DNA of 63,289 bases from an uncultured Gammaproteobacteria bacterium (GTDB taxonomy: Bacteria; Patescibacteriota; Microgenomatia; Levybacterales; GWA1-39-11). Under the pieces are notes generated by a model that saw only the letters and a list, made by a program, of their open reading frames with translations, did not search any database and was not told the DNA's origin. The translations under genes were made by a program, and so were the position numbers. Of this stretch, positions 9,013 to 49,907 are shown one piece after another; within the stretch, counting starts at the first letter, position 1, and every line of letters begins with the position of its first letter. The stretch is taken from contig CAZDED010000009.1 in assembly GCA_964504535.1 (NCBI GenBank), positions 1 through 63,289 of the forward strand, read 5' to 3'.

Positions 9013-9032
9013 ATCTTTAAGAATACCACAAG

Positions 9033-9053
9033 TTAGAAGCTAGAAGCTAGACA
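9033..9053. repeat. Three in-phase heptamers TTAGAAG-CTAGAAG-CTAGACA
   Basis: Direct reading. The repeat overlaps the uvrC stop codon (9047-9049) and lies 20-40 nt upstream of the 9012 start. The CTAG cores put stop codons in all three frames on both strands. Confidence 0.8.
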
Positions 9054-10342: not shown

Positions 10343-12104
10343 TAAGAAGCAACAACTGTAAGTCAGGGATAAATGAAATCCTTATTTTCTTTGAGTATGT
10401 AGCATCCTTTACCTGAATTGTAAGCAGATATTTCCCGTTTGTCAAAAAAGGGGCATCATCAAATGAGGTTGTAATTTTTTCAAGACCACCAGGTGGAATA
10501 TAGTCTATCAAGAACTGTTTTGTCGTACCCCTGCTCGTTTTGACATATGCAGTAGCATTTTCAAGCGCTGCGTTTCCGGAATTTTTAACTATAAAACTAC
10601 CCTGTATCTTAAATTTGGGAAAGGAAAATGTGGGGAATGTGTCTGTAATCACAATCTTTGAATTAGGTTTGAATGAACTACTCTCTGCAAATTTTACCTC
10701 GACGTCTTTGGATTCATTGTCGAATTTATAGCCACCGGCAGGTATAGGATATTGGCTGTCTACCCCTTTGATGGCAAATGCTATGTGGGCAAAGTCAAGA
10801 GTATTGAAATAATCCATACCCTTGGTTGTATTACCCCATGTCGGATCTACCATGATCCATTTTTTAGAAGAAGCATCATAATACTCAGGCCATGCATGCA
10901 AAATATCATTAACCAATGACAGCGGTCTTAATTTTGAATTTTGTGTGTATGCATATCCCTCAACAGAACGTGCCGGAATCCCTTTGGCCCGCGCCAGTGT
11001 TACGAAAAGATCGGTAAATTCAAGGCACACACTGTTTTTTGGATCAGAGAGAGCACCACTACCTCCAAGACGTAGATTGTCAGTAGCTACTTTTGAGTAA
11101 TTGTAGGAGAGATTTTTAACAACATAATCATAAATTTCTTGAGGCGTTTTAATATCTTTCGTTGCTTTTTGTATGGAGGGTGAATTAATATCCCAATGTT
11201 TCTCCGACGAGATATATTCTTTGTAAAGAGCGCTTGGGAGTTCTTCCTTGTTGGGTGAGGGCACGAGTTGCACCACTCCCTTTACCACTACTTGCTGCTT
11301 TTGTTGTGGTAAAAGCCTGTATTCAGCAATCCAATTCCCATCCTTATCCCGCGTTACATTTAGGGGGTCTATCGAAAATGAGTTGATGAGAACATCTTGA
11401 TAATTAGTTTTTGGAGGCAAGGCTATCTCAGTCCTTACAGGAAAAAGATTTGGGTTTGAAATATTGTATTTTACTGAAAAATTATAGTATTGCCGGTCTC
11501 CATACAAAATGTACACGCCTGATTTACCAACATCCTCCTTAGACAAGGTTAATGATTTGTCTTTTTGAGGATCTTTCTGTGGCTTTACAATTGTTGGTAA
11601 TCCGAAAGATGGAGGAACAATGATGTTAGAAGTATAAGAGCTAAAATCACCAGGAGAGGCAATTCCCGGTATGCTGACTTCCCACACACTCCCTTGTTTT
11701 TTTGCTATGTCTTTAGTATCAAATTTTAAAGTAAAGGTATTAACGTCAGACACCCCCGTGTACCGTTTTGGGAATGTTAATTTTATACTTTTATTTGAAG
11801 GTTTTTTGTCGTTAAGAGTCGTTGCTATTGTTCCATCTGCATTGTAAGCTTCAATATTTTGAATATCTGAAAATCCCACAGACACCGTATATGTCGGTGT
11901 GTAGTAAAATTCCGTTTTATTTTTTATATGAATAGTTTGAGAAATTGTCGTAAGGCCATTCTCTGAAATTTTGTACTTAGAGTCTACTGAAATGTCAAAA
12001 TTGGAGTCAGCGGCATTGGCCTGTGGCAAAGTAAAACCTAAAACTTCAAACGTTAAACTTAAAACTATGACAAGGAAAAGGGGAAGGAAAACTTTTTTAA
12101 ACAT
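10257..12104 (-). CDS. Transglutaminase-like (Cys-His-Asp core) envelope protein with signal peptide and C-terminal TM anchor
   Basis: 615 aa. Signal peptide ...PQANAAD. Transglutaminase core: NSVCLEFTDLFVTLARAKGIPARSVEGYAY...HAWPEYYD...WIMVDPTW. The C-terminal TM helix is followed by LLQRRKR. Confidence 0.8.
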   Translation of the reverse strand: MFKKVFLPLFLVIVLSLTFEVLGFTLPQANAADSNFDISVDSKYKISENGLTTISQTIHIKNKTEFYYTPTYTVSVGFSDIQNIEAYNADGTIATTLNDKKPSNKSIKLTFPKRYTGVSDVNTFTLKFDTKDIAKKQGSVWEVSIPGIASPGDFSSYTSNIIVPPSFGLPTIVKPQKDPQKDKSLTLSKEDVGKSGVYILYGDRQYYNFSVKYNISNPNLFPVRTEIALPPKTNYQDVLINSFSIDPLNVTRDKDGNWIAEYRLLPQQKQQVVVKGVVQLVPSPNKEELPSALYKEYISSEKHWDINSPSIQKATKDIKTPQEIYDYVVKNLSYNYSKVATDNLRLGGSGALSDPKNSVCLEFTDLFVTLARAKGIPARSVEGYAYTQNSKLRPLSLVNDILHAWPEYYDASSKKWIMVDPTWGNTTKGMDYFNTLDFAHIAFAIKGVDSQYPIPAGGYKFDNESKDVEVKFAESSSFKPNSKIVITDTFPTFSFPKFKIQGSFIVKNSGNAALENATAYVKTSRGTTKQFLIDYIPPGGLEKITTSFDDAPFLTNGKYLLTIQVKDATYSKKIRISFIPDLQLLLLIGGIIGGSTIIAAITFHTGSVLLQRRKR

Positions 12105-19120: not shown

Positions 19121-19148
19121 TTCTAACTTCTAGCTATTAACTTCTAAC
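19121..19148 (+). repeat. Four in-phase heptamers TTCTAAC-TTCTAGC-TATTAAC-TTCTAAC in the lexA leader
   Basis: Direct reading. It shares the words CTTCTAGCT and CTTCTAAC with the coding-strand sequence of the 9033-9053 repeat. Confidence 0.8.
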
Positions 19149-19159
19149 TACTATTTTAT

Positions 19160-21286: not shown

Positions 21287-22552
21287 TCAACTCAGCTTGC
21301 TCTTACTTAATTCCTGCTCGATAGCCAGTAATCTGTTGTATTTTATTATCCTTTCGCGAGAGGGAGCTCCGAACTTCACGTAATCAGCATCAATAGCTAC
21401 CGCAAAATCAGCAATAAAATCGTCTTCAGTTTCGCCACTTCTACTACTTACAACAATCTTTAACTGCTTAAATTTGGCAATTTCAGCTACCGCTAATGCT
21501 TCAGTTACCGTGCCTATCTGGTTTGGTTTTAGAACTATTGCATTAAGAACGTTATTGTTGAGAGCTGATTGAAGCCGATACGGATTTGTACTGGTGATAT
21601 CATCCCCTGCAATAAGGGTTTTTGCGGCAAATGATGAAAACATTTTTTTCCAACCTTCCCAGTCGTCTTCTGCAAATGGGTCTTCAATGTATACCAATGA
21701 GAAATCATTGATCAGAGTTTGGTACAACTCAATAAGGTCATCCTGATCTAGCTGTCCATTTTTATCCTTGATAACATATTTTTTGTTTGAAAGAATAGCG
21801 TTTGCAGCAATATCAACTCCCATAAATACATCCCTCAGAAAAGCGTAGCGTGTTCCTTCAATTACAGCCTTTAATGTCCTGAAGGCATCAACATTTCCAG
21901 CATAAGAAGGCGCAAATCCTCCCTCTTCAGCGCTCAGAACAGACTGATTATTGTCTTTTAAGTACTCACGTAATTTTTTGTGAATTGTCACTCCAATTTC
22001 TAGAGATTCCGATAATGTATGCGAGGAGGCGGGAATGACAAGAAATTCCTGATAGTTCAGGGTGTTTTCAACATGCTTTCCTCCTTCGATAAGATTAAAC
22101 ATTGGACTTGGTATTCTGTGCTCTTGGCCGCTTTTTGAGGTAAACTGTCGTATATATAAAGCAAGGGGAAGTAAAGAACTTCTTGCAGCTGCTTTACAAA
22201 CTGCTTGACTGACTGAGAGAATGCTATTTGCCCCCAGTTTCATCTTATTTTGGGTGCCATCCATTTCAATCAGAAGTTTGTCTACAATCTGCTGCTCTGA
22301 TGCCTCCATACCAATGACTTTCGGAGCGATAATCGTATTTACAATATCGACCGCTTTTAATACCCCCATTCCAAAATATCTACTCGCATCCTCATCGCGC
22401 AGTTGTTGGGCTTCATAGGTTCCTCTGGATGACCCGGTAGGAACAGATGATCTCGCAACAGTACCATCTGACAATGAAACGGTAGTTTCTATAGTTGGAA
22501 ATCCCCTTGTATCCAAAATTTCCCGTGCTAATATTTGTTCAATTTTTGCCAT
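21287..22552 (-). CDS. eno: Enolase (phosphopyruvate hydratase)
   Basis: 421 aa; ILAREILDTRGFPTIET..., SRSGETED. Confidence 0.95.
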   Translation of the reverse strand: MAKIEQILAREILDTRGFPTIETTVSLSDGTVARSSVPTGSSRGTYEAQQLRDEDASRYFGMGVLKAVDIVNTIIAPKVIGMEASEQQIVDKLLIEMDGTQNKMKLGANSILSVSQAVCKAAARSSLLPLALYIRQFTSKSGQEHRIPSPMFNLIEGGKHVENTLNYQEFLVIPASSHTLSESLEIGVTIHKKLREYLKDNNQSVLSAEEGGFAPSYAGNVDAFRTLKAVIEGTRYAFLRDVFMGVDIAANAILSNKKYVIKDKNGQLDQDDLIELYQTLINDFSLVYIEDPFAEDDWEGWKKMFSSFAAKTLIAGDDITSTNPYRLQSALNNNVLNAIVLKPNQIGTVTEALAVAEIAKFKQLKIVVSSRSGETEDDFIADFAVAIDADYVKFGAPSRERIIKYNRLLAIEQELSKSKLS

Positions 22553-22573
22553 AATGCTTTTTCTGTGGAAAAA

Positions 22574-22685
22574 GAAATCCGAAATTCGAAATTCTAAATC
22601 CGGAATCTGTTTAATTCTTAATTTTCAATCTTTGAAGTTTGAAACATTTTGATTTGTTTCGAGCTTCGATATTAGTGCTTAGTGT
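22574..22685. repeat. Sixteen consecutive in-phase heptamers arranged as runs of near-identical neighbours
   Basis: In-frame reading: GAAATCC GAAATTC GAAATTC TAAATCC GGAATCT | GTTTAAT TCTTAAT TTTCAAT | CTTTGAA GTTTGAA | ACATTTT GATTTGT | TTCGAGC TTCGATA | TTAGTGC TTAGTGT. The run fills the whole intergenic space upstream of eno. Confidence 0.85.
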
Positions 22686-22691
22686 TTATTC

Positions 22692-23873
22692 TCATGATAC
22701 TAACATACTTCCTCTTTTTATCTCCCCTGTTGTTGCATTCAGACTAATCACATCCCCCGTAGAATAGAGCATCTGATTTTTTTTGCGAATGACGGTTGGT
22801 ATTCCAAAATTCTTCAATAAAAAAGCTACTTCAGGATGTGGTTCTTCTTCTATAATAAGCCCTTTTGCTTTTTTTAGTGCAGATAGCATTGATCTATCTA
22901 GTTTTTTTAGCATGATGATCTCGTCCTTTACCAGAAGCCCTGCTTTATCTTTTTCGTCAATTACTTTCAGTCTACCAATTGTGATCCCGGGATGCACTGA
23001 AAGATTTTTTGTGAGTGAAGAATATGTATCATGATAAGAAATCTGATCACTCAACGGGCCAACATGTGAAACCATAAACGCATCATCCTTTTTCCCCCAC
23101 AAAAGAATTTGAGGAAGATAGAGAGCTTTCTCAGTCAGTGTCGCATAATGGAGCAAGATTTTGATATCTTTTGGCGACAGTGCATCTTTTTTCCCACCGG
23201 GAAGAATATTACCTTCCAAAAGTTGTCGTGCGTGCTTGTTGTAGGTAAATTTCACCATAGAATGAGCTTCAATCTCGTACTCACTTTTCGTTTTTCCGAT
23301 AGTGGTAATTGATCCGGTAAGTTTGAATTCATATTCAGGTAGGATGGATAGGCATACTGAAAAAGTGTGATGATTGTTGTTGTGAATAGTGTGTTTTTTA
23401 AGATATTCCGGAGAATATAGATTTGCCCAGGCCAATCGTAGATTTTCTACCAAAACCGCTTCGCCTGAAATATTATTCCACGAATTTTTCCCTATCAATT
23501 TACTTCCTTGAAAATAGTATGCGTAAAGTGTTATAGATTTTGTATCTTGTTTTTTTAGCTTGTCAAACAAAGACTCTGCTAATTTTGCTGGAAAGACTCC
23601 TTTTTCAACAAGTTTTCTAATATAGGATGATGTCTGAGCAAGTGAATCGTGCCGTTCCGGATTAGTACTACCCAATAAATGTTTTATTTGCAAAGAAAGG
23701 TTATTGCCGGTAATAAATGCAGAGAAAGCATACGGAGTAACAATAATTGAGGGCATAATAGCTACACCCTGTCTTGAGATTTCTCCGAGTGAAGCAAGCT
23801 CAGCGCCTACCTCGCTCTTGTCTTCAAGTGTTAGATCTTTATTCCACACCACAAAATCTGTTTGGGCCAACAT
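22692..23873 (-). CDS. PEP-utilising-enzyme-like protein (PPDK/PpsA N-terminal nucleotide-binding plus swivel domain); no recognisable GGxTSH motif
   Basis: 393 aa. The N-terminus EVGAELASLGEISRQGVAIMPSIIV resembles the PPDK_N family. The C-terminus GLIIEEEPHPEVAFLLKNFGIPTVI aligns to the phosphohistidine swivel domain, but the canonical GG-x-TSH is replaced. Confidence 0.55.
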   Translation of the reverse strand: MLAQTDFVVWNKDLTLEDKSEVGAELASLGEISRQGVAIMPSIIVTPYAFSAFITGNNLSLQIKHLLGSTNPERHDSLAQTSSYIRKLVEKGVFPAKLAESLFDKLKKQDTKSITLYAYYFQGSKLIGKNSWNNISGEAVLVENLRLAWANLYSPEYLKKHTIHNNNHHTFSVCLSILPEYEFKLTGSITTIGKTKSEYEIEAHSMVKFTYNKHARQLLEGNILPGGKKDALSPKDIKILLHYATLTEKALYLPQILLWGKKDDAFMVSHVGPLSDQISYHDTYSSLTKNLSVHPGITIGRLKVIDEKDKAGLLVKDEIIMLKKLDRSMLSALKKAKGLIIEEEPHPEVAFLLKNFGIPTVIRKKNQMLYSTGDVISLNATTGEIKRGSMLVS

Positions 23874-29219: not shown

Positions 29220-29239
29220 GTGTCAATTATTATCAAAAA

Positions 29240-30379
29240 TCAAAAGAAAAAGCGAACGTAATCTATCAAAAGTTCTTTTGCACTATATAGCTGTTGCTTC
29301 TCCGGGGTCACTACCAGCTGTTTAAATTTAGTTATTTGCTTTATCGCAATCCCTTTAACTGCCTGGATAAGCGGCTGTCCTTTTGTTTTTTCCATTTTTT
29401 CCGATGTTGCATAGTATTCTGTGAACTGTCCATTTTTGACAAACGAAAATATATCAAACGCTCCTCCTTGAGAGTTGAGAAGAAACGGGGTTATTGCAAC
29501 AATTTTGTCTTTATCCTTACCCCAAAAATCGTCATAGGCTATTTCGAAATACTTTGCAACGACACTACCTGGCAACTTACTGCTGTCCCATCCGGTTTCT
29601 GTAATAAATGCCGGAACTTTTTTACCACTGTGAGCGTTTATAAGCTCGTATTCGTATTGATATGTAGTTATTCCTTCCAATTTTTTAGGCAATGGAGGTG
29701 CTACAAACCCTGGATTGGGGTAAGAATGCGATGCAAATCCATCAATCTTAGTGAAAATCTCTGGGTCATGGGCTAGCATTTTATTGAGATAAACAAAATT
29801 ATCCATATATTTTTTACCGTCATTTGGCGCAGCATTATCAAGTCCACTCATGATGACATAGAAATTTTGACTTCTCTCTTTGAAAGTATCGTACGCATAT
29901 CTTAAAAGACCAGCGTACTCTATGGGGCTTGGTGCCTCTCCTCCCCATTCATCCGACCTATTAACTTCATTAAATACGATTATGTATCGGTTCTCGATAG
30001 GCCAATTTAGGCTATTTAAGAAATTTGCAAAATCCAAAATATCAGTGGCAGTCGGCTTGCTCCATGACGCGGTATTGAAAGGGTCACCCTGCGTTGCAAG
30101 TCTTAATATTGGAATCAATTTTAAATTTTTTGCCGAATCCATGAAGTTTTGCCATTTCTCAATATCTTTATCCCCTGCTTGTATTGGAATAGTTACATAT
30201 CCCCACTCACCTGTTTTTGAATTTACAAGATTTGCGGCATCGGGAAGTTCTGATGGGAATAAAATGTGAATACCATAGAAATTGTTGGGGCGGGACAAAG
30301 GATCAAAAAACGCAGATGTTTTGACTGGAAAGACGCATATTAAAAGACACAATATGACAACGGCAAGAATCTTTTTCAT
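29240..30379 (-). CDS. Secreted TIM-barrel glycoside-hydrolase-like protein (clan GH-A features)
   Basis: Signal peptide, an Asn-Glu acid/base-like motif (IIVFNEVNRSDEWGG) and a nucleophile-like motif (AFITETGW). Confidence 0.5.
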   Translation of the reverse strand: MKKILAVVILCLLICVFPVKTSAFFDPLSRPNNFYGIHILFPSELPDAANLVNSKTGEWGYVTIPIQAGDKDIEKWQNFMDSAKNLKLIPILRLATQGDPFNTASWSKPTATDILDFANFLNSLNWPIENRYIIVFNEVNRSDEWGGEAPSPIEYAGLLRYAYDTFKERSQNFYVIMSGLDNAAPNDGKKYMDNFVYLNKMLAHDPEIFTKIDGFASHSYPNPGFVAPPLPKKLEGITTYQYEYELINAHSGKKVPAFITETGWDSSKLPGSVVAKYFEIAYDDFWGKDKDKIVAITPFLLNSQGGAFDIFSFVKNGQFTEYYATSEKMEKTKGQPLIQAVKGIAIKQITKFKQLVVTPEKQQLYSAKELLIDYVRFFF

Positions 30380-39432: not shown

Positions 39433-39918
39433 TTATCTACTTGCCTTTATTCTTTTTGTTATATAGTCCGTTTGTTTTCTATAGGAACACAAGAACATAA
39501 CCAAAAGTAAACTAATTAATATATAAGGACTCCAGCTTTCAAGTAGTTGAAGTTTTAATTCAATAAATTCATAAAATTTTAACAAAAACAATAGTACCAA
39601 CATTGAACAAAATGTTCGATACATATTATTCGTCTCGGAAAGAAGATCAATCATTGAATCTTTTTTTGAAGCAAAAATAAATTCCTTGTAGTCTGTGAAC
39701 TTTAAGAACGAAACCTTTCTCAATAGTGGTTCAATGACTAACGACCCAAATCTACTAATCACTAATCCTATGAAATAGTATGTAAAAGCCGCAATAATAA
39801 GATTGTCCTGCACTAAGGAAAAGATTGTAAACTTATCGAGAACAATTATAAATATTGTGCCGGGTAACAAATAGTTAAAAAGATTGTATGATGATATCTT
39901 GTCTAAAATTTCCTTCAT
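39433..39918 (-). CDS. Four-TM membrane protein, hypothetical
   Basis: 161 aa. It starts 3 nt after the stop of the upstream MBL gene. Confidence 0.5.
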   Translation of the reverse strand: MKEILDKISSYNLFNYLLPGTIFIIVLDKFTIFSLVQDNLIIAAFTYYFIGLVISRFGSLVIEPLLRKVSFLKFTDYKEFIFASKKDSMIDLLSETNNMYRTFCSMLVLLFLLKFYEFIELKLQLLESWSPYILISLLLVMFLCSYRKQTDYITKRIKASR

Positions 39919-49433: not shown

Positions 49434-49907
49434 TTACGTTTCTAGCATTGTTAATATTGCTTCTTTTCTGTCTTTAAGCATGAATCCCATTTTTTTATGT
49501 AATTTCATCGAGTTCGGATTATCGGTATTAATAAGTGCCTCTATTTTTTCAACTTTTTTTTGTTTAGCAATTGAAATTAATTTCTCATAGAGCAATTGCC
49601 CTATGCCTTGGCCCTGAAATTCCGGATCAATTGCAATATGGTTTACATAAATAGAATCTTTAAAGGGAGAGTTTTCATAAGCAAAAAGAAATCCAACAAT
49701 ATTATTCTCAACATAGGCAACCAACGAGAATCCAGAATCCACGTACGCTTTAAAATCTTCTTTTCTCGAAACCAAACATTCCGTTTTTTTCTTGGATGAA
49801 AGATTCTTCCATTTTTTACCTAAATATTGTATTTGAGTCAATTCATCCACTTCATGTACACCCTTATAATCCTCTTGTTGAACGGGCTTGACCTTAATTT
49901 GTTGCAT
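49434..49907 (-). CDS. GNAT-family N-acetyltransferase
   Basis: HIAIDPEFQGQGIGQLLYEKLI is the acetyl-CoA binding motif A. The start is placed at ATG 49907 (MQQIKV...); the track start is 50045. Confidence 0.75.
   Translation of the reverse strand: MQQIKVKPVQQEDYKGVHEVDELTQIQYLGKKWKNLSSKKKTECLVSRKEDFKAYVDSGFSLVAYVENNIVGFLFAYENSPFKDSIYVNHIAIDPEFQGQGIGQLLYEKLISIAKQKKVEKIEALINTDNPNSMKLHKKMGFMLKDRKEAILTMLET

Follow-up and report, generated by a model that had tools for sequence, protein, structure and literature searches.

Tandem repeats of heptamers (STRR) have been noted since about 1990, and we know of no accepted mechanism for them. In Nostoc, small dispersed repeats embedded in heptamer arrays were reportedly described by Elhai and colleagues in 2008. 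Since the early 1990s, the rRNA intervening sequences (IVS) that carry an ORF have been described as selfish elements whose origin is unknown. In the survey of Mrazek et al. (2007), as summarised in PMC4679880, heptanucleotides were the commonest of the long SSRs in the majority of prokaryotic genomes, and polymerase slippage has been proposed as their cause. The TAACTGA repeats upstream of start codons are common to Beggiatoaceae, Cyanobacteria and Bacteroidetes; their phylogenetic distribution is patchy and points to horizontal spread, with no known mechanism behind the repeats (PMC4679880). In the 23S IVS of Coxiella, two or three GACAGAT heptamers, their number varying between strains, precede the S23p ORF, and the terminal stem is cut by RNase III (PMC4990558). 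ORFs of the 23S_rRNA_IVP type have been reported in rRNA insertions of CPR bacteria (bioRxiv 10.1101/2024.02.27.582315), and PF05635, the family of S23p, resembles the DGR accessory protein Avd (PMC10053308). In the literature that we searched, we found no published link between heptamer arrays in general and PF05635 cassettes, the description of the Coxiella IVS being the only related one retrieved.

Here we analysed a window of 63,289 nt, which is contig C9 of a source genome (G000) of 1.27 Mb in 28 contigs, with 38.7% G+C and an estimated completeness of 100%; the genomes listed from its phylum are all of 0.5–1.5 Mb. The G and L labels used below denote the genomes of relatives and their sequences, respectively. 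On the minus strand of the window, a gene of 393 aa (22692..23873) with the Pfam PPDK_N and PEP-utiliser mobile domains is followed by eno, which encodes an enolase of 421 aa (21287..22552; Pfam Enolase_N and Enolase_C); a phosphoglucose isomerase gene lies upstream. The 393-aa gene is unusually short, comprising only the ATP-grasp N-terminal part of a PEP synthase/PPDK and the swivelling phosphohistidine domain, and its synteny with eno is kept throughout the genus.

The first-pass annotation had read positions 22574–22685, between the stop of the PEP-utiliser gene (22692) and the start of eno (22552), as 16 in-phase heptamers. Re-reading from 22574 returned exactly these units, and both flanking genes were found again as claimed. 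The lag-7 identity of 22574–22685 is 0.59, as compared to 0.294 ± 0.044 in 20,000 dinucleotide-preserving shuffles (z 6.8); none of the 20,000 shuffles equalled this value at lag 7, and none of 5,000 did so at the best of lags 2–15. Tandem Repeats Finder recognised a classical repeat only in the first 3.7 units (GAAATTC, period 7). Within each group except ACATTTT/GATTTGT (three of seven), neighbouring units had been described as identical at five to seven of the seven positions, but TAAATCC and GGAATCT share only four. The successive groups had also been regarded as unrelated, which is not entirely accurate: the outer groups form opposite arms of an inverted repeat, albeit an imperfect one (CGAAATTCGAAA / TTTCGAGCTTCG), and both arms are variants of one TTCGAAA-type unit. 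The spacer is not an assembly artefact, because the identical 139 nt are present in the independent ENA assembly ERZ4216102 (NODE_3884).

Which described repeats does this spacer resemble? An Rfam search of the window gave no match to the spacer, in line with the earlier statement that no known family explains it; tRNAs were the only hits in the window and the PF05635 loci together. The cyanobacterial STRR heptamers, previously named as a loose precedent, are a fair one in our judgement, since these and the TAACTGA repeats of Beggiatoaceae and Bacteroidetes are likewise intergenic tandem heptamers, often located just before start codons. In contrast, the repeats in those reports are direct, with neither a paired inverted arm nor an associated gene, and their unit sequences differ. 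The eno-spacer units are of the GAAATTC and AAGCACG types, presumably distinct from those of STRR1–3. The SSR loci of phase variation are near-perfect tandem tracts, the copy number of which switches the expression of the adjacent gene, whereas the eno spacer has imperfect units and is, over its entire length, a copy of a dispersed element, as described below.

Is the 7-nt period confined to this spacer? Strict tandem arrays in G000 number 52 at period 7, 23 at period 14 and 11 at period 21, with 0–9 for each other period from 2 to 24, and sliding windows detect 50 loci at lag 7 versus 0–2 at lags 5, 8, 10, 11 and 13. A genome-wide comparison with composition-matched shuffles had been proposed as a check of the period. 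In the 496 spacers free of ORFs of at least 90 aa, the lag-7 identity lies above that of dinucleotide shuffles (z 8.9), as does the lag-14 identity (z 5.5); among the lags that are not multiples of three, no other is comparable to 7 and 14. The shuffle tests of the spacer and of the intergenic regions both indicate that the 7-nt periodicity is real, and that it is genome-wide. Short period-7 arrays also occur elsewhere in the window, at 9030-9051 (AAGCTAG), 12032-12066 (TAAAACT), 19121-19153 (TTCTAAC), 39749-39767 (AATCTACT) and 49727-49741 (AGAATCC), and the units of these five differ from those of the eno element. When an inverted partner was sought within 600 nt of every period-7 array, tests with a shared 10-mer and with the consensus showed little enrichment, and in the shared 7-mer test a random control was equally high. 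By these crude tests, the majority of the ~100–160 period-7 arrays in G000 have no inverted partner; therefore, we do not extend the element explanation given below for the eno spacer to every heptamer array.

How did the spacer arise? In 9 of 11 congeners, the distance from the stop of the upstream gene to the eno ATG is only −5 to +22 nt. The junction is TAA-N-ATG in L002, L005, L006, L007 and L009, the two genes overlap in L010 and L012, and a gap of 9–22 nt is present in L004 and L008. The tight junction is therefore the ancestral state, and the spacer is an insertion. In the nearest sampled relative, G009 (enolase 93% identical), the junction is empty and reads GGTATCATAATATGGC, i.e. TAA-T-ATG. 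Inserts are found at this junction only in G000 (139 nt) and in the sister species G002 (79 nt; enolase 89% identical). The G002 insert is built from other heptamers, AAAAGAC-type units and then inverted TGACTA-type units, and is unrelated to the G000 insert; arrays of this type occupy further sites in G000, G002 and G009. Thus, a copy has landed in the 1-nt gap before eno since the lineages of G000 and of its nearest sampled relative diverged.

A BLAST search of G000 with the 139 nt as query returned C10:16925-17049 as the best match, with 85% identity over 125 ungapped nt, together with more partial matches. A profile made from four copies detected at least 10 full copies of 95–142 nt in G000, plus several fragments. 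Many copies match the profile on both strands, indicating that the element is palindromic. In the direction of the downstream gene, the aligned copies have a common order of parts: a 5′ arm (AAGCACN, AAATTCG) leads to the inner box GAAACAAAT, and beyond a centre that varies follow the complementary box ATTTGTTTC and a 3′ arm with the units CGAATTT, CGATATT and CGGATTT.

The eno copy is organised in the following manner, with all features on the minus strand; the heptamer groups of the first-pass annotation correspond to its two arms, inner box and centre. The whole inserted element (22553..22691) fills the gap from the upstream stop to the eno ATG and matches the family profile with an nhmmer E-value of 4e-37. 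First, the A-rich 5′ arm (22658..22685) reads ACACTAA GCACTAA TATCGAA GCTCGAA, that is, AAGCACT/AATATCG/AAGCTCG units; it is alignable with the left arms of all family copies and with the upstream arm of a PF05635 cassette elsewhere in the genome (G000:C1:44693-44751). Second, the inner box, followed by AAAATGT (22644..22657), matches the leader that precedes the ORF ATG in full cassettes. Third, the variable centre, or loop (22609..22643), contains the inner palindrome TTCAAAGATTGAA (inverted repeats I1 and I5), and its TGTTTCAAAC portion is similar to the post-stop box of full cassettes. Fourth, the T-rich 3′ arm (22574..22608) reads AGATTCC GGATTTA GAATTTC GAATTTC GGATTTC, that is, CGGATTT/CGAATTT units; it can be aligned to the right arm of every copy, and also to the downstream arm in the same cassette. 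Finally, a terminal mini-hairpin, CTTTTTC-N4-GAAAAAG (22557..22574), appears in the DNA fold and ends 4 nt before the eno ATG. This hairpin and an enlarged centre characterise the subfamily of the eno copy; the hairpin is also carried by the copies at C10, C3:102867, C3:95859, G004 L022, G006 L027 and G001 L028. It ends 4–5 nt before an ATG in six of the seven carriers (eno copy counted) and 2 nt before it in L028.

The family is present in 17 of 31 relatives. When 301 genomes from across the phylum were sampled, 52 had arm-like matches, and these 52 are spread among many families. Individual sites are either filled or empty. A G004 copy that is 84% identical to the eno copy occupies a site at which the G000 genes simply adjoin, and for a G001 copy (L028:1501-1618) the orthologous G000 site, C16:2944-2962, retains only AAAAAGCATT-ATG. 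At this site, 14 nt, with the start codon and the next G counted, match the 3′ end of the eno copy exactly, suggestive of a remnant left by a deletion. Orthologous copies are found at three other sites; their arms are conserved, and their centres differ by 30–31-nt indels. No target-site duplication could be read from the filled/empty pairs.

These observations bear on the proposal that the array grew on the spot, by 7-nt duplications and point mutation during replication. Period 7 is the dominant tandem period of the genome, as slippage would have it, and the lag-7 identity, at 0.45–0.56 in all 20 copies examined, reaches into the variable centre of every copy (0.39–0.67 in the centre thirds, which differ in sequence and length). 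In the summary in PMC4679880, moreover, polymerase slippage is the process proposed for heptanucleotides as the most abundant long SSR class. However, in-situ growth does not produce 125 ungapped nt at 85% identity elsewhere in the genome, nor at least 10 copies with a common arm order; the nearest relative, with its TAA-T-ATG junction, shows no intermediate state, and the 30–31-nt indels between orthologous centres are not multiples of seven. Replication “stutter”, one of the origins suggested by the first-pass annotation, is therefore extremely improbable here, the whole 139 nt being a copy of a dispersed family. A 7-nt stutter may, on the other hand, be the mode by which the family as a whole evolves.

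As an inserted family copy, the eno element can be compared with MITEs such as Correia, ERIC, RUP and BOX. Like these, it is small, non-coding, intergenic and of the inverted-repeat type, it exists in multiple dispersed copies, and it is polymorphic for presence and absence; its arms are terminal inverted repeats that pair in most copies and weakly in the eno copy. It also has the look of a longer, gene-carrying element that has undergone internal deletion. The filled/empty pairs show no clear target-site duplication. In contrast to MITEs, the arms are arrays of 7-nt units and not unique terminal inverted repeats, and no transposase-encoding parent was found, the sole gene between the same arms belonging to PF05635.

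Could the element instead be a leader that serves its host? A structured 5′ UTR for eno had been suggested earlier, and, in a broader form, the element or its mini-hairpin could have been co-opted as a cis-acting signal for translation initiation or mRNA processing in highly expressed housekeeping genes, eno included. Copies indeed fill the stop-to-start gaps immediately ahead of eno, rpmI, rplL, ssb, dnaB, pgk and secF, as well as of an ATP-citrate-lyase-like gene, and the position of the mini-hairpin 4–5 nt before the ATG in six of the seven subfamily copies would suit such a role. Copy orientation is biased toward the direction of transcription, agreeing with the flanking genes in 8 of 9 scorable G000 copies and in 4 further independent copies in relatives, and the arms are ~87–90% conserved between species whose enolase proteins are only 80% identical. 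However, 9 of 11 congeners, the nearest among them, have no insert between the upstream gene and eno, and other sites are polymorphic as well; in spacers of 1–20 nt, any insert necessarily abuts the ATG. The genes downstream of the copies have no common function. A scan of the coding strand of the spacer gave no promoter or terminator consensus, and the same arms surround a selfish-looking ORF in unrelated phyla. A leader or operator specific to eno does not survive the recurrence of one element before so many other genes together with its absence from most congeners, and we consider the broader cis-regulatory role improbable.

Folding was analysed at the RNA level. Most family copies fold into a long bulged hairpin, while the eno copy folds poorly, with an MFE of −21.3 kcal/mol (z −1.9) and with its arms unpaired in the MFE structure. 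The comparison of sense and antisense RNA folding gave 12 of 20 copies (p 0.25), with the eno subfamily folding better in antisense, and this test of 20 copies gave no consistent sign of RNA-level (G-U-based) selection.

What, then, is the longer element from which the eno copy derives? G000 contains four PF05635 genes, all of which are bracketed by inverted heptamer arrays. The eno-derived profile matches both flanks of one of them, G000:C1:44363-44710; the cassette there, C1:44313-44751, has the following order: AAATTCG AAATTCT AAATTCG AAGCACG AAATAAAC - ATG...TAA - ATTTGTTT CGAATTT CGACATT CGGATTT. Its protein matches TIGR02436 (NCBIfam “four helix bundle protein”) and PDB 2RLD, which is labelled “Uncharacterized protein”. 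The arms of the other three genes have other sequences, namely ACAGGGN/NCCCTGT, AGTTATC... and TAGGGTT/AACCCTA. In the eno copy, the leader box is joined directly to the post-stop-like box, as expected for deletion of the ORF. Therefore, we consider it likely that the eno spacer, a MITE-like element, derives by internal deletion and loss of the gene from a heptamer-armed hairpin cassette whose full-length members carry a PF05635/TIGR02436 gene of ~115 aa.

Members of the genus share the C1 cassette by descent at a single site, and cassettes related to it occupy other sites. In the congener G012, a PF05635 cassette with TCAAATT/GGATTTT-type arms (L084:1440-1900) lies at the junction orthologous to window positions 29222-29285; this spacer of ~62 nt in G000 is without a cassette and has only a weak TTTTGAT doublet. 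In G005 (L082), a PF05635 cassette is located between genes with orthologues at two contig ends of G000, C7:78-500 and C24:4159-4428, and PF05635 cassettes may be the cause of assembly breaks at such ends.

We extended the comparison by a protein-homology scan with one genome per species, which yielded 37 loci from Planctomycetota, Nitrospirota, Ignavibacteria, Gamma- and Deltaproteobacteria, Omnitrophota, Bacteroidota, Verrucomicrobiota and Patescibacteria. Thirty-four loci were scored over 130 nt on each side of the ORF, with a lag-array score of at least 10 as the threshold. ORF-adjacent lag-7 arrays were present in 18 of the 34 upstream and 16 of the 34 downstream flanks, as compared to none at lags 4–6 or 8–11 in the upstream flanks and 0–1 at any lag in the distal flanks. 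In these cross-phylum cassettes, the units on one side of the ORF are the reverse complements of those on the other. Units of the eno spacer (CGAAATT/AAGCACG) flank proteins 60–66% identical to the C1 protein in Gemmataceae, Pirellulales, Nitrospiraceae, a deltaproteobacterium, Chthoniobacterales and Berkelbacteria, and the cgaaacaaat..ATG leader is likewise found in cassettes of Berkelbacteria, Pirellulales, Nitrospiraceae and others. Proteins from the order to which the host belongs reach the same level of identity, and horizontal spread is thus favoured. The family is thus dispersed, polymorphic for presence and absence between species, common to several phyla, and related to the cassette. 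A single architecture, in which inverted heptamer arrays either enclose a PF05635 gene or lack one, recurs with the same units from CPR bacteria to Planctomycetota.

The cross-phylum loci also speak to another use of the repeats, as binding sites for a host protein, for example iteron-like or for a nucleoid protein, independent of any mobile cassette. A protein-binding array had likewise been among the origins suggested by the first-pass annotation. The regular spacing of the units, three of which span two helical turns, and the conservation of arm sequences across species are what an array of such sites would show. However, the arms are tied to PF05635 genes across phyla and distributed patchily among relatives, and the only candidate binder that we found is the ORF of the cassette itself; a host binding array is accordingly very improbable. 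We retain the reading of the spacer as a gene-less cassette copy.

How does the parent cassette compare with the 23S rRNA IVS of Leptospira and Coxiella? Both place a gene of the same protein family (S23p is PF05635) between inverted terminal repeats, and the Coxiella IVS has tandem heptamers just upstream of the ORF, as the parent cassette does. A PF05635 ORF between inverted repeats is thus found in the G000 C1 cassette and at the cross-phylum loci, whereas the eno copy is without an ORF and lies between protein-coding genes. Moreover, the IVS are located at helix 25 or 45 of the 23S rRNA, whereas no rRNA was found around any of the four G000 PF05635 genes. The similarity to the PF05635-like Avd of DGRs is restricted to the protein family, as G000 has neither a reverse transcriptase nor a template/variable repeat pair.

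What could move these elements? A reverse transcriptase was considered as the engine and rejected, as the G000 genome has no RVT_1, and no transposase was found in association with the family. REP/REPIN elements, which depend on RAYTs (Y1 HUH), are likewise dispersed, intergenic, hairpin-forming palindromes. G000 contains two Y1 (HUH) transposase-like genes, at C3:65715-65957 and C8:66274-66522 (215–223 aa), each with a GC-rich palindrome of its own on either side (e.g. TTAGGGGTCCGACCCCTAA; GGGGTCCGACCCC-type) in the manner of a RAYT with its REPs. In the REP/REPIN-RAYT system, the palindromes flanking the RAYT match the dispersed copies, whereas these GC-rich palindromes are unrelated to the heptamer arms, and RAYT/Y1 transposases were rejected as mobilisers. 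With no clear target-site duplication and no transposase, RVT_1 or matching RAYT ends, the term “mobile” rests on distribution and not on mechanism.

On the basis of these comparisons, we propose the following course of events. Parent cassette: its inverted arms are heptamer arrays, of AAATTCG/AAGCACG in the 5′ arm and CGAATTT/CGGATTT in the 3′ arm, and enclose a gene for a four-helix-bundle protein of the rRNA-IVS/DGR-Avd family.

eno copy: Following its insertion, the gene-less copy would be co-transcribed with the operon, and would uncouple the translation of eno from that of the upstream gene. By analogy with the rRNA intervening sequences, RNase III may cleave the imperfect hairpin of this copy; a gene for the enzyme is present in G000. 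Otherwise, the insert would probably be a selfish or neutral passenger.

For annotation, the eno spacer should be read as an insertion splitting a tightly coupled gene pair, and not as an enolase riboswitch, operator or contingency repeat. This reading links previously unexplained heptamer repeats with a selfish cassette and not with the regulation of enolase, and the problems of the heptamer repeats and of the rRNA IVS gain a concrete experimental object in a 115-aa protein and its ~30-nt arms. More tentatively, heptamer-armed PF05635 cassettes and their gene-less relics might form a distinct cross-phylum class of mobile elements without a classical transposase, in which the Avd-like protein would recognise or maintain the arms. 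Such a class could explain a substantial share of the heptanucleotide excess (STRR- and TAACTGA-type), the ORF-bearing rRNA IVS and the inserts at operon junctions; we regard a generalisation of this breadth as rather unlikely.

Two further loci of G000 were noted. An inverted AAAGACA pair 1.8 kb apart (C5:77915 and C5:79747) was considered as a larger cassette and rejected, as both members lie inside long ORFs. The region C5:79718-79780 is a 63-nt AAAGACA-type array of 9 units, equal to 21 codons, inside an ORF of 364 aa, and may be an in-frame intragenic array; by eye, we take the N-terminus of this ORF to be MreB-like. At C20:11-1249, a second, divergent enolase-like gene, 42% identical to eno and with one in-frame TAA, shares its small contig with a PF05635 cassette (C20:2660-3034), and similar paralogues are present in most congeners.
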